This document shows positions 3,875 through 31,970 of a stretch of 58,860 nt of DNA, piece by piece. Source of the DNA: Pseudomonadota bacterium. Its GTDB lineage: Bacteria > Pseudomonadota > Gammaproteobacteria > Pseudomonadales > UBA6940. The stretch spans positions 1 through 58,860 of the forward strand of contig JAZKFP010000050.1 in assembly GCA_040386355.1 (NCBI GenBank), in the 5' to 3' direction. How positions within the stretch are numbered: the first letter of the stretch is position 1; each line of letters begins with the position of its first letter. Below the pieces are notes generated by a model. It did not search any database. It was not told where the DNA came from and was given only the letters and a program-made list of their open reading frames with translations. Made by a program: the position numbers and the translations under genes.

Positions 3875-3887
3875 GAATGGTGGAGCT
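3875..3887. repeat. left att repeat (degenerate copy of the tRNA-Ala 3' end)
   Basis: GAATGGTGGAGCT is identical to 31892-31904. Partial similarity continues: TAAGGGAGAT here versus AAGCGGGAT at the tRNA. Confidence 0.6.
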
Positions 3888-4531: not shown

Positions 4532-5815
4532 ATGTTGTTAAAAGCATCTCAACGTGGCGGCGCAGATAAACTGGCTGCGCATTTATTAAATGAAAAAGAT
4601 AATGAGCATATAGAAATTTACGAAATAAATGGATTTATTGCCGAAAATCTGCGCGATGCATTGCAAGAAATTTCGATGATCGCGCAAGGCACACGATGTA
4701 AACAATATTTATTTTCAATAAGCTTAAATCCTCCAGAAAATGAAAACGTGCCGGTGACTACGTTTGAAGATGCAATAGACCGTATAGAAAAAAAGCTTGG
4801 TTTAGAGGGCCAGCCGCGTGCAATTGTTTTTCATGAAAAAAATGCTCGCCGTCATGCGCATTGCGTATGGTCGCGCATTGATGTGGATGAAATGACGGCG
4901 ATTAATCTGCCATTTTATAAAACCAGATTGATGGAAGTTTCAAAAGAATTATATCTGGAACATGGCTGGAATTTACCACCAGGATTTATTAATCGAGAGC
5001 AACGCAACCCACTGAATTTCAGCCGTGAACAATGGCAACAAGCCAAACGGTTGGGTGATAGTCCCGAAACTATCAAAACCATACTTAAAGAATGCTGGGC
5101 GGTTTCGCATGACAAAGCGTGTTTTATGAAAGCTTTAGATGACAAAGGGTATTACCTGGCGCAAGGTGACCGGCGCGGCTATGTCGCTGTCGATTGGCGC
5201 GGTGAATGCTATTCCCTTTCGCGCTGGCTGGGCGTTAAGACTAAAGATTTAAAACATCGCCTGGGTGAACCTGAAAAACTGCCTGCCGTTGCGCAAATCA
5301 AAACACAGATTGATCAAACCATGCGCCAGCGGGTTCAAAATTTCGTGCAAGACATTAAGGCCAAATATGACCGCCGCCGGACCCCATTTGAATCACAAAA
5401 ATCAGGCATGAAAGATCGTCATCGTCATGAACGTAAAGATTTACTCCATAAACAAAAAGAGCGCTGGAATACCGAAGCTATAGAGCGGCAAGCTCGAATA
5501 ACCAAGGGTTTGCGGGGATTTTGGGATCGCATTATCGGCAACCATGCCAAGACTCTAAAAAATAATGAGCGTGAGCGTGAAAATGCCATTTGCCGTGACA
5601 GACAGGAAAAAGAGACGTTGATTTTACGCCAACTTCAAGAACGTCGCGGTTTACAGCAAAGCTTTAAGCATCACAACAACCAATATCATAAAGAATTACA
5701 GACTTTAAAAGAGATGCTTTTTTCAAAAATGCCGGAAGAACATATTCATACATTAACGCAGGAATTTAAAACCCCCTACCCTACGCGCGATCGTAGTTTC
5801 AGTTTTAATAGGTGA
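4532..5815 (+). CDS. relaxase/mobilization nuclease (MobA/VirD2 family)
   Basis: N-terminal MLLKASQRGGADKLAAHLLN, His-triad-like HEKNARRHAHCVWSRID, and a long charged coiled C-terminus. Located directly downstream of mobC. Confidence 0.85.
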   Translation: MLLKASQRGGADKLAAHLLNEKDNEHIEIYEINGFIAENLRDALQEISMIAQGTRCKQYLFSISLNPPENENVPVTTFEDAIDRIEKKLGLEGQPRAIVFHEKNARRHAHCVWSRIDVDEMTAINLPFYKTRLMEVSKELYLEHGWNLPPGFINREQRNPLNFSREQWQQAKRLGDSPETIKTILKECWAVSHDKACFMKALDDKGYYLAQGDRRGYVAVDWRGECYSLSRWLGVKTKDLKHRLGEPEKLPAVAQIKTQIDQTMRQRVQNFVQDIKAKYDRRRTPFESQKSGMKDRHRHERKDLLHKQKERWNTEAIERQARITKGLRGFWDRIIGNHAKTLKNNERERENAICRDRQEKETLILRQLQERRGLQQSFKHHNNQYHKELQTLKEMLFSKMPEEHIHTLTQEFKTPYPTRDRSFSFNR

Positions 5816-5889
5816 TTGTTATGAAAGCATCGATTGACGATGCTTGAAATATAACACATAGTGTGATACATTTAAAAATAGGAGTGCCG

Positions 5890-6297
5890 GTGAAAAACTA
5901 TAAAAACAGGCCAAGAATATTTAAAAACGCTTGGTTTACGCGGTTTGCGGTGAAAGAGAAGATATCCGATGCTCAATTATTAGAGGCCGTTGAGCGTGCT
6001 GAAAAAGGATTAATCGATGCCGATTTAGGCGGACATATTATCAAACAGCGCATTGCCAGGCCGGGGCAAGGAAAATCCGGTGGTTACCGCAGTATTATCA
6101 TTTATAAACAAGGCGACAAAGCTTTTTTTGTATATGGATTTGCAAAGAATGAACGTGACAATCTGGACCGCCAGGAAACAGAAACCTACAAAAAAGCAGC
6201 CAAGGAATTGTTAGCCTTGTCTGACGCACAGATTAAAAAATTGATTGAGAAACACGCATTAATTGAGGTGAAGTATGAGCAACAAGAAGAAATATAA
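5890..6297 (+). CDS. type II toxin, HigB-2/RelE-like (COG4737-type)
   Basis: GQGKSGGYRSIIIYKQGDKAFFVYGFAKNERDNL matches the HigB-2 family core. GTG at 5890 is preceded by GGAG (5881-5884). Overlaps the downstream HTH gene. Confidence 0.75.
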   Translation: MKNYKNRPRIFKNAWFTRFAVKEKISDAQLLEAVERAEKGLIDADLGGHIIKQRIARPGQGKSGGYRSIIIYKQGDKAFFVYGFAKNERDNLDRQETETYKKAAKELLALSDAQIKKLIEKHALIEVKYEQQEEI

Positions 6298-21654: not shown

Positions 21655-23322
21655 TTAAAGACGCAGTTTTGTTTTTCCCTTATAAGCTTTGCCATAGAGT
21701 GGGTTCACTTCAAGCTGCTTTTTCCATGGTGAAATTTCGTGATAACTGATTTTATCCAGCAAGACAGGTCGTAAGCCACCGGAAAATAGAATGATTTTAT
21801 CTGTCCGGCGCACTTCATCCGGTGTCATCAGTTTTCGTGGAGTTTCATGCACTGAAGTTGAGACCGGATTAAAAAAATATTCGCCTATATTATAGTTTTT
21901 TGATTTGATGGATTGGTCACCCAACATATTTGAAATTAATTGGCAGGTTTTAAACGATCTTATATTCATGATGATTTTTACTTCTGTTTGAGAAAGCAAT
22001 GTTTCTAAACTTTCTCTTCCGTAAACATAAGCCCATTGCTCAAGCTCCTGAATTATGAGCCACATAGTAATCTGGTATTCTCTTGCCAAAGTTAACATCG
22101 ATGGCAAATTATCAACTTTAAAATTGGTAATTTCATCGCATAAAAAACATACGCGATTGGGGCCGGTAGTACGCATTAATTCTCTCAATGCACACCAGGA
22201 TAAAACCGCTAGCCATGGCGCATAGACGCTCATGCGAGTTGGATCAGCAATAAGATAAATAGTGATTTTTTTGTGTTTCATATCCGAAAAACGAAAATCA
22301 CATACGGACGTACATTCTGCAAGAACACCGCTTGCAGAAAACACTTCTACGGATTGCACCGCGCCCTCTCGAAAACTCTCAACTTGTTTAGGATCGCCAT
22401 TTTCGATTTTGCCGATCATATCGCGGGCCAGCCTGGCAAGATCACCATGTAAATGGGTGGATTGCACAGCCTCACGCAAGGCGGCATGTAATCTTTCGCT
22501 ATCACTTAGCAGTGATAAGGCGTTCGATAAGGTAGCGTTGCCTTCCATCGTCATCAAATATACAAATGCAAAAATCAAGAATTTTCGCGCACCATTTCGC
22601 CAATATTGGTTTTCACCTTGTGTTTTTGGGTCCTGACAAAACTGCTTTGCCAAACCTTCGGCCTCAGATAAAACTTGATTATGTAATTTTGGATCAACCC
22701 AAGTATCAATTAGAATTTGCAGCGGGTTGTATCGTGCGCCAACACCTAAAATATGCGCATTAATACCTGCTGGATTAACGAAAAGCGTTTCATGCTGAAA
22801 TTTTTTGCGGCGATATTTACCGGTCATGACAGCTAAAGTACCTTTTAAATCCGGCACCAACATACTTGTGGAGTTATGACATAAGGTTGGAATAACAAAA
22901 CCAGTGGTTTTTCCTCCACCAGCCGGACTAAGCACTAATCCAGAGGATTCAATATCTACAAAGACGGGTTTGTTGTTATGTAACCCCGCTAAAAATCCGC
23001 GTGGTTTTTTTCGAGCTCCAGAGAGCAATCCAAAAGTTTTAAATAATCCTGCTTGCTGTATTTCTTTAGGTGAAGCCCAACCGGCAGTTCCGGCTTTGCC
23101 GGTGGTTTTCATAGCTTTAATATAAAAAAATATTCGGGGAATGGATCTTAAAATTAAAGCGCCGAGATGGGCAAATAATAATCCGGCAGAAAACATGAAC
23201 ATCAGCGGCATTAATGCCCATTCGGTTTCGAGTAAATCAAATGTTTTCCATGCAAACCAGGAAAATAATACACCTAAAATCAACATGCCGGTGGGATGTT
23301 CACCTTGTCGATGATATCGCAT
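21655..23322 (-). CDS. type IV secretion coupling protein (VirD4/TraG/TraD family)
   Basis: Two N-terminal TM helices, Walker A SPAGGGKTTGFVIPT, and overall T4CP length and pattern. Confidence 0.85.
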   Translation of the reverse strand: MRYHRQGEHPTGMLILGVLFSWFAWKTFDLLETEWALMPLMFMFSAGLLFAHLGALILRSIPRIFFYIKAMKTTGKAGTAGWASPKEIQQAGLFKTFGLLSGARKKPRGFLAGLHNNKPVFVDIESSGLVLSPAGGGKTTGFVIPTLCHNSTSMLVPDLKGTLAVMTGKYRRKKFQHETLFVNPAGINAHILGVGARYNPLQILIDTWVDPKLHNQVLSEAEGLAKQFCQDPKTQGENQYWRNGARKFLIFAFVYLMTMEGNATLSNALSLLSDSERLHAALREAVQSTHLHGDLARLARDMIGKIENGDPKQVESFREGAVQSVEVFSASGVLAECTSVCDFRFSDMKHKKITIYLIADPTRMSVYAPWLAVLSWCALRELMRTTGPNRVCFLCDEITNFKVDNLPSMLTLAREYQITMWLIIQELEQWAYVYGRESLETLLSQTEVKIIMNIRSFKTCQLISNMLGDQSIKSKNYNIGEYFFNPVSTSVHETPRKLMTPDEVRRTDKIILFSGGLRPVLLDKISYHEISPWKKQLEVNPLYGKAYKGKTKLRL

Positions 23323-23415: not shown

Positions 23416-24708
23416 TTATTTAATTTTCAAAAGCTGCATTGGATTTATAACGAGATTATTTGCATTAACGGACTGTGCGGATTGAAGCGCTTGGATCATA
23501 TTTTCTCCCTTATTTCCCGTTTCATTTTTTATGTGAAATTTTTTGGCAAAAGTTTCACCATTAACCGATAAACGAAGTTCCCCTTTCACTCCGCCAATTT
23601 TTATGCCGTCAAAAAAGTTAATTGCAATTATAAGTTTTTCTAAATCAATTTCTGAATGAAACTCAATAATTTCATACCCATTCAAAGCAGTATTAGAACT
23701 TCTATAATCTTTCCAATACGACCCTTCAGGTGAAGATGAATTTGCATAAAATAAAGGCTTAGCACCAGGAAAAGGCAATGCGTATAAATCTAAATCACAA
23801 GTTGCGCAGTCCCAGGACAAAGAAATTTCAACATCCCTGCCCTGCCGTATTTCGAAAGTCGACAATATTTTTTCTGATAGCTTTCGATCAAAAATTGACT
23901 GCTCTCTACGCTGTGTATGCAGACGGATCATTTCTAATTTTCCAGGCTGAGCATTTCCAAAATTATGCTGGGAAATTTTTATGTCTTTTCCCAGTGTTTT
24001 TTGAACACGCTGTAGAATAATTTCCGGATTGTTGGCAAAACTCAACAAACTCCCACCTTGACGCTCAATGAAAAGTGTCCAAAAGCGTTTTATAAAATAG
24101 ATATTTTGATCGTTTAAATTTTGAGAATTGGTGTAAGCAAAATGCACACGCATATTTGCTAACAGTTCAGGTGTATCAACTGTTCCAAAAGGTGTAATCG
24201 CCGTGGATTCCAATAAATGCGCATCAGAAGGAATGCTTGGGGCCGCCATACTAAAAGCCGGTTCTCGCGCGTCGTCATATAAAGGGGAACCGATCATTAA
24301 AATATCTAATGGTTCAAGTGGCGCATAATTTTCGGCTATATAGCGAAGCACTTGCGGGATACGCAGAGCTTCTTTTATTACAGGCTCCGCAGGCTGATTT
24401 TTAGTGAATTTCAGAAGCTTTGAAACCGTTTTACGGTTCACACCCATTCGCGCTTTAGGAGAGTTATAGGCTGAATCAATTGGTATTTTGAAATCACCAA
24501 TGTTTTCCAAGCTATAACCATTGATTAAAATTACATTGTCTCCAGGCTCAAGCGTGGTTAAAAAATTAATCACATTTGAAATCGTTTTTTTTGAATTGGC
24601 TTCGTCCATGTGCGGTGACAATACAATGACCAGGTCACGGGCTTGCACAACTGAACTCATTAAAAGAGTAATTATAAAGAATCCAACGCATAAATAAGGG
24701 TATCGCAT
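23416..24708 (-). CDS. secreted hypothetical protein
   Basis: 430-codon ORF with signal peptide MRYPYLCVGFFIITLLMSSVVQA, directly upstream of the T4CP gene on the same strand. Confidence 0.6.
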   Translation of the reverse strand: MRYPYLCVGFFIITLLMSSVVQARDLVIVLSPHMDEANSKKTISNVINFLTTLEPGDNVILINGYSLENIGDFKIPIDSAYNSPKARMGVNRKTVSKLLKFTKNQPAEPVIKEALRIPQVLRYIAENYAPLEPLDILMIGSPLYDDAREPAFSMAAPSIPSDAHLLESTAITPFGTVDTPELLANMRVHFAYTNSQNLNDQNIYFIKRFWTLFIERQGGSLLSFANNPEIILQRVQKTLGKDIKISQHNFGNAQPGKLEMIRLHTQRREQSIFDRKLSEKILSTFEIRQGRDVEISLSWDCATCDLDLYALPFPGAKPLFYANSSSPEGSYWKDYRSSNTALNGYEIIEFHSEIDLEKLIIAINFFDGIKIGGVKGELRLSVNGETFAKKFHIKNETGNKGENMIQALQSAQSVNANNLVINPMQLLKIK

Positions 24709-24752: not shown

Positions 24753-25754
24753 TTATTGATAGAAATTGTTGACGGCACTAAATTTGGCACGTTGGCTGTT
24801 ATATTCCGCAACTTGCGAATTGATAAATGCCTGCCTGTTTGCGATGAATTGATTTAAATGTTGTCTTTTTTCGGCACATTCTTCAGTTAATGCTTTGTGT
24901 TCTGCGCAATGAATTTTCCAAGCAGCATCAAGCTCGACATATTCAAGATTATCGCAATAATAATCTGGAGAATATTTATTAAAAATATCTTCTAAAGCGA
25001 GAAATAAACTTGCTGATACTAAAATTTCAGAAAGCAGTTGAATCCAAACAAAACACGATCCTTTCCATTGAAAACCCTCCATTTCTTCGGCATTAAAACT
25101 GCTAGATACTCCGTTAAAATTTAATGAAAAAAATACGGTCCAGACAAGCAGCGTTATGCCGGTTAAAATATAAATACATAATCCATATTTTCTCTGGTTT
25201 TTATAAAAATCAATGAAGTTAGAAACAAATTTCAAAGAACAGCTGGCGGCTGGAACAAGCAGTGATAAACACAAGGCTAAGTGAGGTTTTTCAATAAAAA
25301 TTGTAATGCCTGATTCAACAAGATTTGAGTAAACATTTGCCGTACCCATAACCATTGAAATTAACAAAAAGATTGCTGTTAATATAAAATATGCTTGGTC
25401 TCTTTTATTCCAATTGTTAAAACGGATCGGATTTTTATTATTGTCATTCGAACCAGTGCTTACATACGCAGATTTAACGTGGCGTTTGGTAGAGCGTTTT
25501 CGAAGCGATAATTCAGCAAGCGTCACAGCAGATTCTTCACACCGCGCATCAAGCTGTTTTAATTCCATAGAAAGTGTTGTTTGATCTCCATAATAACCAT
25601 CATAAATTGCGCCAGCTTGCTCAGGGATCATGTGTTCAGCATTTTGAATATTTGAACTTTGTCTAACTTTTTTAATGAAGTCTGCCATTGAGCAGGCCAT
25701 TAAAGAATTTTCAATAATTTCTTTTTTTTCAGGGAGAGTGCGAGGCGAAATCAT
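24753..25754 (-). CDS. polytopic membrane protein with a coiled-coil C-terminus
   Basis: 333-codon ORF with at least four hydrophobic helices in the central part. Confidence 0.6.
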   Translation of the reverse strand: MISPRTLPEKKEIIENSLMACSMADFIKKVRQSSNIQNAEHMIPEQAGAIYDGYYGDQTTLSMELKQLDARCEESAVTLAELSLRKRSTKRHVKSAYVSTGSNDNNKNPIRFNNWNKRDQAYFILTAIFLLISMVMGTANVYSNLVESGITIFIEKPHLALCLSLLVPAASCSLKFVSNFIDFYKNQRKYGLCIYILTGITLLVWTVFFSLNFNGVSSSFNAEEMEGFQWKGSCFVWIQLLSEILVSASLFLALEDIFNKYSPDYYCDNLEYVELDAAWKIHCAEHKALTEECAEKRQHLNQFIANRQAFINSQVAEYNSQRAKFSAVNNFYQ

Positions 25755-25888: not shown

Positions 25889-26437
25889 TTAAAATTTAAT
25901 ATAGTGTTTTGCAACGTGAGGAAATTCGATTTCAACAAATAAAGTTAAAATCCTGAGCCTTTCAACTTTTCGGGAAATACGCTTTGGAAAAAATCCTGTT
26001 TTATCGGCCTCTATATAATGTGATACAGAGCGCATATCGGGATCATTTCCAAACGCCTCATCTAAATCTGGCAATTCATAAATACTTTCATTCGCATTTA
26101 TGAATTTACGTCCTTTCGAAAAGACAATTGAAAGTAAATCTAACAATTTTCTTCTTGAAACATTTTTTTTCATTTTATCTTTAGAGACTTTATCTTTAGA
26201 GGATTTATCTTTAGAGGATTTATCTTTAGAAGCTTTATCTTTAGAAGCTTTATCTTTAGAAGCTTTATCTTTAGAAGCTTTATCTTTGGAAGTTTTATCT
26301 TTGGAAGTTTTATCTTTGGAAGCTTTATCTTTGGAATGATCTTTTAAGCTCTTAATGACCATCCAAGTTATCCAATAATTTAGGGGGTGGTATAGCTCTG
26401 CCTTACTTGCAACACGAATTGTTTTTTTAAATTTCAT
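25889..26437 (-). CDS. hypothetical protein with an (S-K-D-K-x)11 pentapeptide repeat
   Basis: ATG at 26437 with AGGA upstream. Eleven in-frame 15-bp repeats encode SKDKA/T/S/V units. Confidence 0.55.
   Translation of the reverse strand: MKFKKTIRVASKAELYHPLNYWITWMVIKSLKDHSKDKASKDKTSKDKTSKDKASKDKASKDKASKDKASKDKSSKDKSSKDKVSKDKMKKNVSRRKLLDLLSIVFSKGRKFINANESIYELPDLDEAFGNDPDMRSVSHYIEADKTGFFPKRISRKVERLRILTLFVEIEFPHVAKHYIKF
26174..26338. repeat. 11 tandem copies of a 15-bp unit (tttatctttagaagc and variants)
   Basis: Counted directly: units start every 15 bp from 26174 to 26324. Variants are grouped in runs (gagga x2, gaagc x4, ggaagt x2). Confidence 0.9.
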
Positions 26438-26606
26438 GGGGATTTCCTTCAAGTGAAGAAATTGAATCCCCTTGGCCAAGGGTTTTTTTATAGGCTGCGC
26501 AGCCGGCTTAAACTTAATCAGCTATTGCGCTAATAGATATATAAGATTTAGAATCTTGTTAATATTATTAAATCGTAGTTAATAAAAAATCAAAAGAGAG
26601 ATTATT

Positions 26607-27209
26607 ATGCCAAATCAATATTGCAGAGGCTCACATCTTTCATCATGGCAATTTGAACACTTTGTGAGGATTTATATTGAAGAAGTTTGCATGTGCCTGA
26701 CAAATAACAATAAAAGAAAATATTATTTGAATAAGTTAGAAAGTTTGGGAGTCAAAATGGTGCGGCAGACTTTTGCAAAATATCATAACGATATTGGCGA
26801 TTGGTTATGGGAAAATTACATATTCCATCCCATTGTTGAAAAAGTAGACAACAAAGAAATTATTAATGAACTTTGCCAGCTAATATTTGGCCATGTTAAA
26901 TATTCAAATATGAAATTCCGTAAGGAAATTGAGTTCTATACTGGTGGCAATTTCTTCATACACAATTCTTATGAGTATCATGTTTTAGATAGGCGTTCCG
27001 ATCGTGCCTACGGTTTAAAGTTAGAAAATTTTTATCGTGAATTTAGCAGAGCTCGCTGGATCGGGGCCTTTATTAGAGAAGAAGGACTTAAACATCTTTC
27101 AGACTTTGAAAATTTATCTCAACTTTCGAAAGTTTTAAACAAAGCAGTTGATACCTTACTAATGAATCTTATAAAAAATCCTTTGTTAATCAAAAATGGG
27201 AAGACCTAA
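26607..27209 (+). CDS. hypothetical protein
   Basis: 200-codon ORF with AGAGAG upstream. A distant resemblance of the N-terminus to the HTH part of ISXO2-like transposases is too weak to call. Confidence 0.45.
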   Translation: MPNQYCRGSHLSSWQFEHFVRIYIEEVCMCLTNNNKRKYYLNKLESLGVKMVRQTFAKYHNDIGDWLWENYIFHPIVEKVDNKEIINELCQLIFGHVKYSNMKFRKEIEFYTGGNFFIHNSYEYHVLDRRSDRAYGLKLENFYREFSRARWIGAFIREEGLKHLSDFENLSQLSKVLNKAVDTLLMNLIKNPLLIKNGKT

Positions 27210-27929
27210 ATTTTTTCTAAAATTATCTAAATTTCCTTTAGATTCTGCCTCATCGTATTCTCTGCTATATTTTGCTATCGCAGCTTTTGTTTCGATTCTC
27301 AAGTCTCCAAATTTACTTAAATTTGCACCTATATGAGCAGATTGTGATAAATAATTTATTGGTTCAACTTCAATCAATGCATCACGTTGCTCTTCTTCTG
27401 TCAGAAAATCCTCATAACGCTTTAAATCTTCAGATTTTTCAACCTCACGTCTTTCATTTGTGCAATCTTGCGTCCAATCAAGAAAAGCTTTTTTATAAGC
27501 TTCAATGATTGCGGGCTTATTCTTAATTCGCTCTAAATCAATTGGATTGGCTGCTATCCATTCAGAAACGAGAATTTTAAGATTCTTTGCTCCAGAAACA
27601 TTTAAATCTACATAGTTTTCTATTTTTTTTGCTAAATTAACACCAAAAATTTTTGATAAAGACGGTGGTTCTGTCATTTCTGGCACATTTGATACAGCGA
27701 CTAGTTTTTTTATTGTTATAAATTTATTTTTGCCACTTTTATAAGGACTATTAATTATAAAGTCTAGATTTTCTTTACTAAAGTTTTCATTTTTTGATTT
27801 TTTAGCACTTTTAATTTGTGTGGTAGATTGATTTCCAACCAAATTTTCTTTTAAAAGTTTACTTGGGATCATCTCGTCTAGTTTATGAGATGGCTCAATT
27901 TTATTTTTTGAATATGATCTAATTTTCAC
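27186..27929 (-). CDS. hypothetical protein (second gene of a two-gene operon)
   Basis: 247-codon ORF starting 9 nt after the stop of 27939..29756. Confidence 0.55.
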   Translation of the reverse strand: MKIRSYSKNKIEPSHKLDEMIPSKLLKENLVGNQSTTQIKSAKKSKNENFSKENLDFIINSPYKSGKNKFITIKKLVAVSNVPEMTEPPSLSKIFGVNLAKKIENYVDLNVSGAKNLKILVSEWIAANPIDLERIKNKPAIIEAYKKAFLDWTQDCTNERREVEKSEDLKRYEDFLTEEEQRDALIEVEPINYLSQSAHIGANLSKFGDLRIETKAAIAKYSREYDEAESKGNLDNFRKNLGLPIFD

Positions 27930-27938
27930 AATCCACTC

Positions 27939-29756
27939 TCAACTTTCATTTGGACTTGTCATTAATACTCGTGCCAACGTGGCATCAGCTTGTTGCAAGG
28001 CGATTTCAATTTGATCTATTTTTAAAAATATTCCTGGCGTATTTAATTTAAAATATGGATTATCATAAATTCCAACTTTATAGTTCCATGTATCGTCCAG
28101 AACTTTAAAAGATATTTGATCTTTAGAAGTTTTAGCATTTGGATTCCATGTAAATTTTACATATTGGAAAGGATATACACGTGACAAGAGTTTAAGAGGA
28201 GTGTTTAAACGATTGGCAACTTCCTCTGGCGTATATTCTAAATTATTTTTTGAATTTGCTATCTCGTAAACTATAGCATGTAATACATTATAATATGTAT
28301 CCTGTATTTCTTTAATATAAAGATTATTAACACGAGTGCGAATGGAACGAATCGCATAATTCGCTACGCTATGATAAAAATGATAAATTTCTCGCCATGT
28401 TTTTTGCGGATCGTTTGTGTCACATTTAACAATATGTCCCATTGCGTAAACTGGGGCACCGGCTATGTGTATGGGAACGATAATTTGTTTGTATTTGGCA
28501 GTCTTATCTGGCTGCGAAAAAAATATTTCTGCACAGTTCGTATAATCTAATAATCTTTTATAATCAGGATCATTCTTGTAAATTTTTTCTGGAGGGCCCT
28601 CCGGTTCATCTAAGCGATTAAAAATATTGTATTTAATCGGCTCATTTAAAAATTGAACATAACCTCCACAAAAAGCAGCATCGAAAACAGATCGTGCCTT
28701 ATCCCCAAAAGGTCTTTCAGCATTATCTAGCATTTCATCAATTTCTTTAGGTGATAATTTTCCTTTAAGAGCTTCTTTTATATCCTTGCGCTGACTGTCA
28801 GGCACAATATGTCTTACACCGTGACTATATGCACCGTCACTATTTGCTAATTTACCGTTGAGACTTCCACGGTAACGTTTAGTTTCTCGATCAAACATCA
28901 TTATCCCAAACATAATGTTGGGGGGTGCTTTACCATTTTTGCATAAGAGTGGAGATCCTTTAAAACTCTCATAAATAAATTCAAAAACATGAACCGCTTT
29001 TTTATAATGCTCGTCAAAAAAATATTGTATTTCGTCTCGACAATCTTCGGCGGCTTTATTTTTTTTATAAGTTTTCAAATATAATTTTTCTTGAGGAGTA
29101 AACTTAATATCGGGATCATCAATTTTAATTGATTGTTTATGCCACCAATTTGCGCCTTCCTTACAAAATGGTTCTGTCATTACATTAATTTTATTTGCAT
29201 AAAAATATTTAAAAGCAGAGTCCCTTTCTACCTCCTTAACTAACTCTTCAAAAGAGTGATTATCTGAACTTTCACCATTTTTAAATTTGATTGCCTTAAA
29301 TTCGGGGGGCTCATAGCCTTTAGATTTTTTAAAATCTGCTAAAAAACACAGAAGGAAAATGTTTTTATGTATAGGAAAGACATAGTTCTGGCATTCTTCT
29401 AAATCGAGATAAATATAATTAGGATTTTTATTCTTAGAGGGAAGCTTATGCAACTTTTCTGGTTTTTTTAAGGTCGTCTCAAAGTCATCCTTCCATACTG
29501 GATCAAGGACTGTATGATGCAAAACTTTATACCAGCCATTAGCTACATCTTTTTCCAGCAATACGCTCGCTGCATTTTCTTGAAAGAAAATACGAAGGCG
29601 ACTGATAATTTGGCGATGTCCTACCTTAACAATTCTCTGTTGAATATCTGATGACAATAGAGATTGCTTGATAAGATAAACTCGCTCAAGAATATCTCTC
29701 ATGTTCTTATCTTCAATTGAAGCGACAACTTGAGCATTTTTTAATAGTGTTTCCAT
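27939..29756 (-). CDS. large hypothetical protein
   Basis: 605-codon uninterrupted ORF in ~30% GC DNA. No catalytic motif recognised. Confidence 0.65.
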   Translation of the reverse strand: METLLKNAQVVASIEDKNMRDILERVYLIKQSLLSSDIQQRIVKVGHRQIISRLRIFFQENAASVLLEKDVANGWYKVLHHTVLDPVWKDDFETTLKKPEKLHKLPSKNKNPNYIYLDLEECQNYVFPIHKNIFLLCFLADFKKSKGYEPPEFKAIKFKNGESSDNHSFEELVKEVERDSAFKYFYANKINVMTEPFCKEGANWWHKQSIKIDDPDIKFTPQEKLYLKTYKKNKAAEDCRDEIQYFFDEHYKKAVHVFEFIYESFKGSPLLCKNGKAPPNIMFGIMMFDRETKRYRGSLNGKLANSDGAYSHGVRHIVPDSQRKDIKEALKGKLSPKEIDEMLDNAERPFGDKARSVFDAAFCGGYVQFLNEPIKYNIFNRLDEPEGPPEKIYKNDPDYKRLLDYTNCAEIFFSQPDKTAKYKQIIVPIHIAGAPVYAMGHIVKCDTNDPQKTWREIYHFYHSVANYAIRSIRTRVNNLYIKEIQDTYYNVLHAIVYEIANSKNNLEYTPEEVANRLNTPLKLLSRVYPFQYVKFTWNPNAKTSKDQISFKVLDDTWNYKVGIYDNPYFKLNTPGIFLKIDQIEIALQQADATLARVLMTSPNES

Positions 29757-30106
29757 TTAAAAACCTATTTTTTGAAATATTCTGGGAAACAGAAAATATA
29801 AAATTAAAAAAAACTCTATTTTAAAATAATTTCTCGACAATAATCGCAAAATCACATACGTTAGGATCAAATTCCTATCACTGCGGCGCAGATCATTAGT
29901 TATAGAAAATAATTAATGATCTTCTTTTTGATTTATCCGCATTATGCACTTAGTGCGCAGCCGTCATTTATCTTGCGTGCATATTTCCCATTTCCGTACG
30001 CTGAGAGTGATATCTAACTCTACTCATACTTTATTTTCAACCCTTTGAAGCCAACGCGTTGTTTTTCTTTCTTGAAAAGCATTGCGCTTGTGCCTGCGAG
30101 TTTGCC

Positions 30107-30403
30107 ATGCCCATAAACATTGAAAAATATATGATTTATATGGATGGTTATGATCTGACCCCTTCACAAAAAATTGAAATGATTCAAACCGTCTATGGAT
30201 TAATGGAATCCAACATTGACCAAATTTTTGGTCAACATCCCGTACAACAATGCCGTGAATATAATGCAGTTAATAATTTACGAAATGAAAGCTGCGCGAT
30301 AGACTCGAAATTATCTGTTAAAAAATCATTTAGCCATAGTGCAAATGTGCGCAAACCCGTAAAAAGAAAGGCCTCAGTATGTCCAAACAACAACGCCTTA
30401 TAG
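30107..30403 (+). CDS. small hypothetical protein overlapping the recombinase start
   Basis: ATG at 30107 (MPINIEKYMIYMDGYDLTPSQKIEMIQ...). Overlaps the recombinase start by 25 nt. Confidence 0.45.
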   Translation: MPINIEKYMIYMDGYDLTPSQKIEMIQTVYGLMESNIDQIFGQHPVQQCREYNAVNNLRNESCAIDSKLSVKKSFSHSANVRKPVKRKASVCPNNNAL

Positions 30404-31959
30404 CCGTAACCTATTGCAGAGTGAGTTCTGTACGCCAAGTTAAAGAAGGTAGCGGATTGACATCGCAAGCTATTCGATGCAGTGAGTATGCGAAATATAA
30501 AAACTATGAAGTTATTCATGTTTTCCAAGATGAAGGTATTTCTGGAAGTTTGATTGAACGTCCAGGGATGCAAGAAATGCTGAACTTCATTCGTAAGCAG
30601 AAGGAAAAACCTTGTATTGTTTTGATTGATGACATTTCGAGATTAGCCCGCGGGTTGGCTGCGCATATTGAGTTGCGTACTGCCATTAGTGCTGCGGGTG
30701 GGAAACTGGAAAGCCCTTCAATTGAATTTGGCGAAGATTCTGACAGTGTTTTAGTCGAGAATCTTCTTGCTAGTGTTTCTCAACATTCCAGGCAAAAAAA
30801 TGCAGAACAAGTTAGCCACAGAATGAGAGCGCGGGCTTTGAATGGCTATTGCGTAACCCCCCCCGTTCCTGGATATCAATATAAAAAAGTTGCAGGACAT
30901 GGCAAATTATTAGTGCGTGATGAACTAGCAAATATTGTTCAAACAGCGCTTGAATCTTTTGCTAGTGGCCGTTTTCAGACATTGGCGGAAGTTACCAGAT
31001 ATTTAAATTCACAGCCGACTTTTCCAAAAGGAAAGAGTAGCAAAGTCGTGCATCCACAACGCGTGGCGGATATGTTAAGACGCCCTATTTATGCAGGATA
31101 TCTCAATTATCCTACATGGAATATTAATATGATATTAGGTCATCACGAGCCAATTATCAGTTATGAGACCTTTAAAAAAATTCAGGAGCGTCTTGATGGT
31201 AAAGCCAAAGTGCCAGCACGGAAAGACATCAGCCATGCATTTCCCCTCCGCGGTTTTATAGTGTGCGCATGCTGCCAAAAAGCTATGACAGCTTGTTTTT
31301 CTCAAGGACGCAGCCGAAAATATCCATATTATTTCTGTGCAACTAAAGGATGCTCTAGCTATAAACGAACTATTGCGAGAGAAAAAATCGAATCGGAATT
31401 TGAAAATTTATTGAAGCAGCTGAAACCATCAAAAAACTTATTTAATCTGGCGCATGCCATATTTAAAGATCTTTGGGAAGAACGCATGATTAATCGTCAT
31501 GGAGAAATTCATGTTATTAAAAATCATGTGTTGAAAATTGAAAATCAAATTATGAAAATGGTGGATCGTGTTGTTGAAACAGACAGCCCAACATTAGTTG
31601 CAACTTATGAAGATCGGATTCGAAATCTCGAAGATCAAAAGATCACATTGAAGGAAAAAATCGCGCAATGTGGTACAGCTCTGCCAGATTTTGACACGGC
31701 TTTTCACACCGCTTTTGATTTTCTAGAAAACCCCTATAAAATGTGGGCTTCCGGGCAATTAGAGCATCAAAGAAGTTTGCTAAAACTCACGTTTACCGAC
31801 AACCTAGCATATGATCGCAATAGTGGATTTCGAACCGCTAAAACCACCTTACCTTTTGCGGTGTTAAACGGCATATCTAAGGGAAATTATGGAATGGTGG
31901 AGCTAAGCGGGATCGAACCGCTGACCTCGACACTGCCAGTGTCGCGCTCTCCCAGCTGA
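30379..31959 (+). CDS. large serine recombinase
   Basis: N-terminal resolvase motif IAVTYCRVSSVRQ, DDISRLARG, a recombinase domain, Cys-rich zinc ribbon CACCQK...YYFCATKGC, and a coiled coil. The last 65 nt of the ORF overlap tRNA-Ala on the opposite strand. Confidence 0.9.
   Translation: MSKQQRLIAVTYCRVSSVRQVKEGSGLTSQAIRCSEYAKYKNYEVIHVFQDEGISGSLIERPGMQEMLNFIRKQKEKPCIVLIDDISRLARGLAAHIELRTAISAAGGKLESPSIEFGEDSDSVLVENLLASVSQHSRQKNAEQVSHRMRARALNGYCVTPPVPGYQYKKVAGHGKLLVRDELANIVQTALESFASGRFQTLAEVTRYLNSQPTFPKGKSSKVVHPQRVADMLRRPIYAGYLNYPTWNINMILGHHEPIISYETFKKIQERLDGKAKVPARKDISHAFPLRGFIVCACCQKAMTACFSQGRSRKYPYYFCATKGCSSYKRTIAREKIESEFENLLKQLKPSKNLFNLAHAIFKDLWEERMINRHGEIHVIKNHVLKIENQIMKMVDRVVETDSPTLVATYEDRIRNLEDQKITLKEKIAQCGTALPDFDTAFHTAFDFLENPYKMWASGQLEHQRSLLKLTFTDNLAYDRNSGFRTAKTTLPFAVLNGISKGNYGMVELSGIEPLTSTLPVSRSPS
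31892..31904. repeat. right att repeat inside the tRNA-Ala 3' end
   Basis: GAATGGTGGAGCT is identical to 3875-3887. Confidence 0.6.
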
Positions 31960-31970
31960 GCTATAGCCCC
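31895..31970 (-). tRNA. tRNA-Ala (anticodon GGC)
   Basis: The reverse complement folds as a cloverleaf: GGGGCTA/TAGCTCC acceptor stem with the G3:U70 Ala identity pair, anticodon loop CTGGCAG, TTCGATC T-loop, and an encoded CCA. Confidence 0.92.

Follow-up and report, generated by a model that had tools for sequence, protein, structure and literature searches.

A rare family of stand-alone proteins with a predicted GAF fold, related to the sensor half of kinase-like proteins, on a mobilisable island of a UBA6940 bacterium

The window analysed here is a DNA stretch of 58,860 nt from a Pseudomonadota bacterium (Gammaproteobacteria; Pseudomonadales; UBA6940; assembly GCA_040386355.1, contig JAZKFP010000050.1), and it contains a mobile island with a compact block of three genes encoding proteins of 605, 247 and 200 aa (Table 1). 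The 605-aa gene is followed after 9 nt (27930-27938) by the 247-aa gene, whose GTG start lies directly 3' of the Shine-Dalgarno-like sequence GAGTGGA and which is probably translationally coupled to the 605-aa gene, and the 247-aa and 200-aa genes converge with an overlap of 24 nt (27186-27209). When the coordinates were recomputed, the three open reading frames (ORFs), the gap and the overlap came out as a preliminary description of this DNA had given them. That description had also argued that such long frames at low GC content must be real genes, and we agree: the block has 31.9% GC (island mean, 39.4%; right chromosomal flank, 36.1%), and a 3-periodic Markov model, for which 1078 long ORFs elsewhere in this genome served as the training set, scored each ORF best in its own frame (605-aa, +0.165; 247-aa, +0.185; 200-aa, -0.003 bits/codon), all remaining frames being at -0.23 bits/codon or lower. 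The 605-aa and 247-aa ORFs score as high as, or higher than, the coupling protein (+0.138) and the serine recombinase (+0.111) nearby. All three ORFs are real genes, and the 200-aa ORF, with its marginal coding signal, is the least certain of them.

The three proteins had been described as free of recognisable motifs, and neither inspection by eye nor the profile libraries altered this: Pfam, NCBIfam, PHROGs and PADLOC gave no match for any of them (PADLOC-DB 2.0, 0 families at E<=0.01), sequence searches of the PDB gave none, and no Walker A motif was present in any of the three. The only hydrophobic window near the cut-off lies in the 605-aa protein at residue 425 (KD19 1.62), where the structural model confidently predicts beta-strands and not a membrane helix. 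In a word-index homologue search each protein retrieved only itself. For the 605-aa protein this singleton result was misleading, because an exhaustive HMMER search of 1.84 billion representatives found 67 clusters besides the query's own at E<=1e-3, 19 of them at E<=1e-30, with identities of 20-37% and lengths mostly of 570-690 aa. About 60 of the clusters are stand-alone forms, whose ends lie within ~45 residues of one common point, and seven bear an additional C-terminal tail of 230-280 aa. The family carries the motifs PPNIxF..R.F, Y.Y.VR..IP..Q, ARSLSD.VF.SGYV, DYRR.VY.HY, VPG.VGG.PW, W.D.YHFYHS, L.RVYPF and NPYF, and has 20 invariant columns (start Met included) across 19 sequences that are 24-31% identical to the window protein, while the C-terminal tails are not conserved. 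It is thinly spread: the ten clusters that were checked were singletons or two-member clusters, metagenomic and nameless; no match to the 605-aa protein was found in 100 relatives, in 72,556 plasmids (tblastn) or in viral contigs; and among 400 sampled genomes of the phylum the stand-alone family was absent apart from the window's own genome, the only other match (genome G409) being of the kinase-like type described below. By sequence, then, the 605-aa protein is no orphan but a member of a family that is rare and unnamed. The label of an orphan gene set stands for the 247-aa and 200-aa proteins, within the reach of the tools used, but falls for the 605-aa protein, which has 67 other clusters, a confident GAF-type model and a kinase-linked sister clade.

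The AlphaFold2 model of the 605-aa protein, made with a 38-sequence alignment, has a mean pLDDT of 85.5 and a pTM of 0.89. It consists of an alpha/beta domain (residues ~15-160), long helices that serve as a linker (164-265), another alpha/beta domain, into which a helical region is inserted (~253-482), a single helix (450-501) and a small helix/three-strand/helix domain at the C-terminus (510-603). In Foldseek the top PDB rows for the model were tandem-GAF PDE6, PDE2A and PDE5 together with phytochromes, all weak (E ~0.01), and against viral structures nothing fell below E 0.1. In exhaustive structural alignment the central domain matched 4g3w with Z 8.9 and a root-mean-square deviation (rmsd) of 3.2 A over 135/137 residues, followed by 3oov (Z 8.4) and 3o5y (Z 8.2-8.3), and nearly all of the top 50 rows were GAF, IclR_C or fRMsr chains. 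As these Z values are close to background, the GAF call rests on the consistency of the rows, the coverage of the full domain and the confidence of the model, and on these grounds the central domain is predicted to have a GAF fold. The N-domain, put at residues ~15-196 in the overall layout, is tentatively GAF-like, its best structural match being 3cit (Z 5.3, weak). No catalytic, kinase or DNA-binding domain was recognised in the parts of the model tested, the C-domain having been barely tested. The structure-based check that had been suggested thus yielded a GAF fold for the 605-aa protein, but no usable model for the 200-aa protein.

Compared with characterised proteins, the centre of the 605-aa model superposes over the whole domain on the GAF domains of Aquifex NlhH (4g3w/4g3v), NifA (8jrc), a methyl-accepting chemotaxis protein (3oov) and a kinase (3o5y), with Z 8.9-7.3 and rmsd 3.2-3.7 A over 135-145 residues, and as in signalling GAF domains a long exit helix follows it. 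Unlike those domains, it has no Pfam GAF match, carries ~90 residues of insertions and is joined to no recognised output domain. Indeed, the GAF profiles PF01590, PF13185 and PF13492 matched neither the window protein nor any of 38 family members, a Pfam scan found no domain in 38/38 aligned members, and the ESM Atlas returned weak GAF/IclR leads only. The tandem GAF-A/GAF-B modules of PDE2/5/6 and of the cyanobacterial CyaB cyclases, which also occupy rows 4-9 of the structural alignment, share with the 605-aa model two alpha/beta GAF-type modules and long joining helices; they, however, regulate a fused catalytic domain and bind cyclic nucleoside monophosphates through known motifs, whereas the 605-aa protein has no catalytic domain. 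In 19 members the invariant polar residues (R294, Q322, R355, D359, G365, R381, Y399, P428) all lie inside the central GAF domain.

The seven tailed members form an uncharacterised sister clade (G409/L005, 754 aa; L010, 639 aa; P0049, P0056, P0058, P0062, P0065). In 6/7 an H-box (consensus sHLlrTPL, residues ~516-540) comes right after the module shared with the stand-alone forms, and an N-box (ELLxNA) follows; the tail shows no clear G1 or G2 boxes. The best PDB profile matches of the tail were HK853-type kinases (E 0.05), and one member touches HATPase_c (E 0.02). An hhalign comparison aligned the 605 family with this kinase-like clade at Prob 99.9% and E 7e-37 over 482 columns, from columns 19-603 of the 605 profile to columns 6-508 of the 771 in the kinase-clade profile. 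Since the alignment covers the length of the 605-aa protein, which ends 2 residues past the shared module, profile comparison identifies it as the complete sensor half of a kinase-like architecture in stand-alone form. The two forms share R294, Q322, R355, D359, G365 and P428 and the motifs RVYPF and NPxF. The H-box pattern is not found in the 605-aa protein, nor does Pfam detect an HATPase_c (GHKL ATPase) domain, for which there is no space because the shared sensor module fills the protein to within 2 residues of its end. The kinase-like members differ further in their surroundings, which do not look mobile: in both recovered contexts (G409 and L010) the next gene encodes a sigma-54 AAA+ activator. 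The activator in G409 (C89; L005:81-4408) lacks a receiver domain and begins in its place with a PD-(D/E)XK-like N-terminus; that of L010 (L010:632-6744) has a receiver domain, and a PF04392-type ABC transporter precedes. In a FastTree phylogeny, in which support values are local only and several branches are long, the kinase-like clade was separate from the stand-alone forms (support 96), and the window protein fell among the 21 members of a clade with full support, to which every member with a known mobile-element context also belonged.

Behind the 605-family gene a co-oriented ORF follows at 0-80 nt in all four loci with downstream sequence, the window included. These partners are similar in size (247 aa in the window, 210 aa in L006, 233 aa in L007 and 236 aa in L008; the loci are introduced below), and all four are hydrophilic and evenly charged, with an isoelectric point (pI) of 7.7-8.7 and a grand average of hydropathy (GRAVY) of -0.66 to -0.85 (pI 8.65 and GRAVY -0.66 for the 247-aa protein). 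Between L007 and L008 the partners share 48% identity, and neither BLAST nor hhalign gave a signal for the 247-aa protein against that pair, for the L006 partner against that pair, or for the 247-aa protein against the L006 partner. By sequence comparison the partners of the four loci thus appear to be of three unrelated types, in which only position, size and charge are conserved. The proposed check on whether the two genes co-occur therefore has a divided answer: the 247-aa sequence stands beside no other family member, but wherever sequence downstream of the homologue is available, a charged ORF of the same size comes next. Searches by word index, of the 400 sampled genomes and of the PDB found no relative of the 247-aa protein, and the ESM Atlas offered no usable neighbour. 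Motifs of a nuclease, protease, NADase, pore or ATPase are absent from this protein, as are membrane segments. A ribbon-helix-helix reading of the C-terminus of the L006 partner was a guess that searches did not confirm.

As for the 200-aa gene, it is an unrelated orphan specific to the element. It breaks an otherwise co-directional array, it has no counterpart in the other loci, and no relatives were found by word index or in the PDB. Four weak matches among the 400 genomes (E ~0.006 per genome) were GT1 glycosyltransferases or broken frames, at chance level, and the single-sequence AlphaFold2 model, in which helices are predicted, is unusable (pLDDT 40).

The island that carries the block is ~28 kb long and ends in a 13-nt repeat (3875-3887 and 31892-31904), whose second copy lies within a tRNA-Ala(GGC) gene. 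It is an integrative mobilisable element at tRNA-Ala, because a relaxase, a coupling protein and a serine recombinase are present and no mating-pore genes were seen among the scanned island ORFs of at least 120 aa. Elements of this general class, encoding their own relaxase and coupling protein, have been reviewed (PMC5704250). The island resembles them in its serine recombinase, its tRNA insertion and its lack of mating-pore genes. On the minus strand the order is 605-aa gene, 247-aa gene, 196-aa repeat-protein gene, 333-aa gene, 430-aa gene and coupling-protein gene, with the 200-aa gene on the opposite strand after the 247-aa gene. The recombinase gene is divergent from the 605-aa gene and begins 622 nt from its start, so that the block does lie next to the recombinase of a mobile element, as had been noted; circularisation would bring the relaxase gene close to both.

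Table 1. Coordinates of the three-gene block and of further features of the island in the window
Feature	Coordinates	Strand	Remarks
605-aa ORF	27939-29756	-	ORF call; GC 33.3%
247-aa ORF	27186-27929	-	ORF call; GTG start; GC 29.6%
200-aa ORF	26607-27209	+	ORF call; GC 32.5%
SKDK-repeat protein, 196 aa (182 aa from internal ATG)	25889-26479	-	between three-gene block and 333-aa gene
333-aa polytopic membrane protein	24753-25754	-	syntenic block
430-aa signal-peptide protein	23416-24708	-	syntenic block
VirD4/TraG-type coupling protein (T4CP)	21655-23322	-	last gene of co-oriented array
Intergenic region, 605-aa gene/recombinase	29757-30378		palindrome with 14-nt arms; GC step ~32% to ~40%
Large serine recombinase	30379-31959	+	3' end overlaps tRNA-Ala(GGC) 31895-31970; marks right end of island
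MobA/VirD2-type relaxase	4532-5815	+	opposite end of island

Several smaller features were observed on the island. The palindrome in the region between the 605-aa gene and the recombinase gene (29890-29922) has the arms AGATCATTAGTTAT and ATAATTAATGATCT with a 5-nt spacer and is a candidate operator. In the same region a 114-codon ORF (30059-30403; ~98 codons from the ATG at 30107) overlaps the beginning of the recombinase gene. With 0.0 it scores higher as coding than the other frames do, and it may be a small gene for directionality or regulation. Between the gene of the 196/182-aa repeat protein and that of the 200-aa protein lies a perfect, GC-rich palindrome, CCCTTGGCCAAGGG (26469-26482), with a T-run after it on the plus strand. 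An inverted repeat flanking the block (26587-26607/29914-29934) was rejected, being 81% complementary in AT-rich DNA and indistinguishable from chance. At the island's left end the relaxase gene is immediately followed by a PF06296 RelE-type toxin gene (5863-6297), and the island also carries a small resolvase, ArdC, an XRE/ImmA pair and an E2-E1-JAB/MBL (6A-MBL-type) operon.

Pattern scans of genome and metagenome collections, based on an 8-sequence alignment, recovered four further stand-alone loci (L006, L007, L008 and L009), and in 4/4 of these the 605 homologue lies on mobile DNA. In L006, from a Nitrosomonas metagenome-assembled genome, and its near-copy L009, genes for NikA/MobC, a MobA/VirD2 relaxase, the homologue (661 aa in L006, 30% identical to the 605-aa protein), the 210-aa partner, small ORFs, proteins of 243 and 432 aa, further small ORFs and the coupling protein follow one another on one strand. 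The 432-aa ORF is 44% identical to the 430-aa protein of the window (E 1e-132), and the 243-aa ORF is 35% identical to the 333-aa protein. The window's 333-aa protein (24753-25754) matches two adjacent L006 ORFs of 115 and 243 aa (L006:13193-14246), as by fusion or splitting. The order of the L006 element (relaxase, homologue, partner, 333 family, 430 family, coupling protein) mirrors that of the window: in L006/L009 the homologue stands in one array with relaxase and coupling protein, and in the window the same order is found upstream of the coupling protein. The transfer proteins themselves have diverged, the coupling proteins of the window and L006 being barely alignable (21%, E 0.002) and the relaxases giving no BLAST match at 1e-4. 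Since the Nitrosomonas element keeps the order with different relaxase and coupling-protein lineages, and its homologue sits with 333/430 homologues inside the relaxase-to-coupling-protein array, we no longer regard the position of the block as the free cargo slot beside an integrase that had been proposed. Moreover, the joint presence of the 605 family, in its stand-alone form, and the 430 family in two elements is not chance, because each occurs in none of the 400 sampled genomes other than the window's own. Weak tblastn matches to the N-terminal half of the 430-aa protein (21-23% identity, E 2e-9 to 2e-4) were seen in hypothetical genes carried by Planctomycetes and Rhodovulum plasmids.

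The homologues of L007 (596 aa, 29% identical to the 605-aa protein) and L008 lie on elements with a related small resolvase, and the available sequence of these two loci contains neither a relaxase nor a coupling protein. L007 also carries (L007:2379-6454) a copy of the window's E2-E1-JAB/MBL/208-aa operon, 63-73% identical and ~2 kb upstream of the 605-family gene; in the window the 6A-MBL-type operon is ~8 kb from the block, and it was not found in the available L006 and L008 sequence. A pair of small adjacent ORFs (80-100 aa each) after the L006 coupling protein (L006:18308-18852) resembles one ORF of each pair upstream of the homologues in L007 (L007:7471-8045) and L008 (L008:6310-6912), at 28-35% identity over 37-93 aa (E 4e-5 to 2e-7), and may be a mobile cassette such as a toxin-antitoxin pair.

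From the predicted GAF fold and the homology to kinase sensors we infer, as a tentative preference, that the 605-aa protein may be a ligand-sensing regulator of the element which works through protein contacts. It would be a cytoplasmic, sensor-only protein, whose central GAF domain would bind a small ligand; an anionic one is suggested, because the invariant residues of that domain include three Arg, one Asp and one Gln. The signal would then run through the long helix (~50 residues) and the C-domain to other proteins by direct contact, the candidates being first the co-translated 247-aa partner and then the envelope pair 333/430 and the coupling protein. The result would be control over the timing of the element's mobilisation or over neighbouring genes. 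Several points weigh against this reading. The ligand, the partner contact and the phenotype of the 605-aa protein are predictions, and contexts are known for 5 of the ~60 stand-alone members, the window included. GAF Z values of 8-9 lie at or slightly above what the aligner yields as background when a model has no clear relatives; the N-domain matched weakly, and the C-domain was hardly covered by the fold searches. That the sister tail is a kinase is concluded from motifs and from E-values that are weak (0.02-0.05). As the partner ORFs are not homologous, it is their position, size and charge alone that mark them as partners. The 10 kb downstream of the L008 homologue contain neither 333/430 nor coupling-protein genes, and with L009 nearly duplicating L006, the coupling protein is linked to the homologue in 2/4 independent contexts. 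A literature search found no paper connecting a GAF-domain protein with mobilisation modules.

The preliminary description had looked to the block for a new defence system. In such a defence or anti-defence cassette the GAF protein would sense an invader molecule or an immune nucleotide and the small partner would be a swappable effector, or the GAF protein would sequester a signal. This we consider unlikely, yet it is a serious rival. One conserved sensor followed by three unrelated downstream genes is the pattern of conserved sensor and swapped effector common in defence systems; the 605 family is rare, patchy, fast-evolving and found on mobile elements; and the island also carries the 6A-MBL-type operon and ArdC. 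However, PADLOC matched none of the three proteins, and the partner shows neither an effector-like motif nor a membrane segment. The sister clade is of the ordinary two-component signalling type, with sigma-54 activators and an ABC transporter as neighbours, and in L006 the gene lies within the array that runs from relaxase to coupling protein. A 6A-MBL operon also lies ~2 kb from the L007 homologue, which counts in favour of defence, but its proteins (63-73% identical) are far closer to those of the window than are the 605 homologues (29%), which points to separate histories of the operon and the 605 gene. A bolder proposal is that the 605-aa protein and its fast-evolving partner form a hitherto undescribed ligand-gated switch, in which a small anionic molecule on the central GAF domain would license or block DNA export at the coupling protein together with the 333/430 pair, or, as a variant, a sensor with swappable effectors would form an immunity or counter-immunity system; this proposal, too, we hold to be unlikely.

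The positions in L006/L009, between relaxase and coupling protein, and in the window, within the coupling-protein array, could also mean that the 605-aa protein is itself a transfer accessory, either a relaxosome or coupling-protein factor or an exported substrate, with the GAF folds as mere scaffolds. In virD-type operons the extra genes virD3 and virD5 lie between relaxase and coupling protein, which is a positional analogy. We give this explanation a poor chance, since the full-length homology to a kinase sensor module indicates signal input and not DNA processing, the gene pairs of L007 and L008 are without a coupling protein in the available sequence, the C-terminal tails are not conserved, and no homology to known relaxosome or coupling-protein accessory families was found (Pfam, NCBIfam; tblastn against the plasmid set).

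Slightly less probable again is a modulator of host signalling, in which the sensor-only copy would titrate the ligand, or heterodimerise with a host kinase-like relative or with its sigma-54 activator, and so rewire host transcription. The whole 605-aa protein is homologous to the sensor half of the kinase-like proteins, whose genes are paired with those of sigma-54 activators; this would fit such a role, as would the long helices of the model, which are typical of dimeric sensors. Against it, no paralogue of the kinase clade was found in this genome (85% complete), the clade is rare (1/400 sampled genomes), and a sigma-54 promoter scan of the window gave 31 matches against 30.6 expected, none usefully placed. 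Finally, that the block is a functionless remnant, a truncated kinase gene with chance ORFs in AT-rich DNA, as the lack of relatives for the 247-aa and 200-aa proteins and the marginal coding score of the latter might suggest, is highly improbable in view of the ~60 full-length stand-alone clusters with a common end point, the 20 invariant columns at such low identity, the separation of stand-alone and kinase clades in the tree, and 605, 247 and 200 stop-free codons at 32% GC, each best in its own frame.

A word-index search may thus label a protein a singleton among billions while an exhaustive profile search finds its family. Mobilisable islands are abundant and poorly understood, and little is known of how they control their leaving of the cell. 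What is new here is a family that, judged from profile alignment, comprises a complete kinase-type sensor module without the transmitter. If the defence explanation were true, it would represent a new type of sensor with swappable partners. Further, with members placed between relaxase and coupling protein in two lineages whose transfer machinery is barely related or unrelated, the 605 family is a testable candidate for signal-controlled mobilisation.

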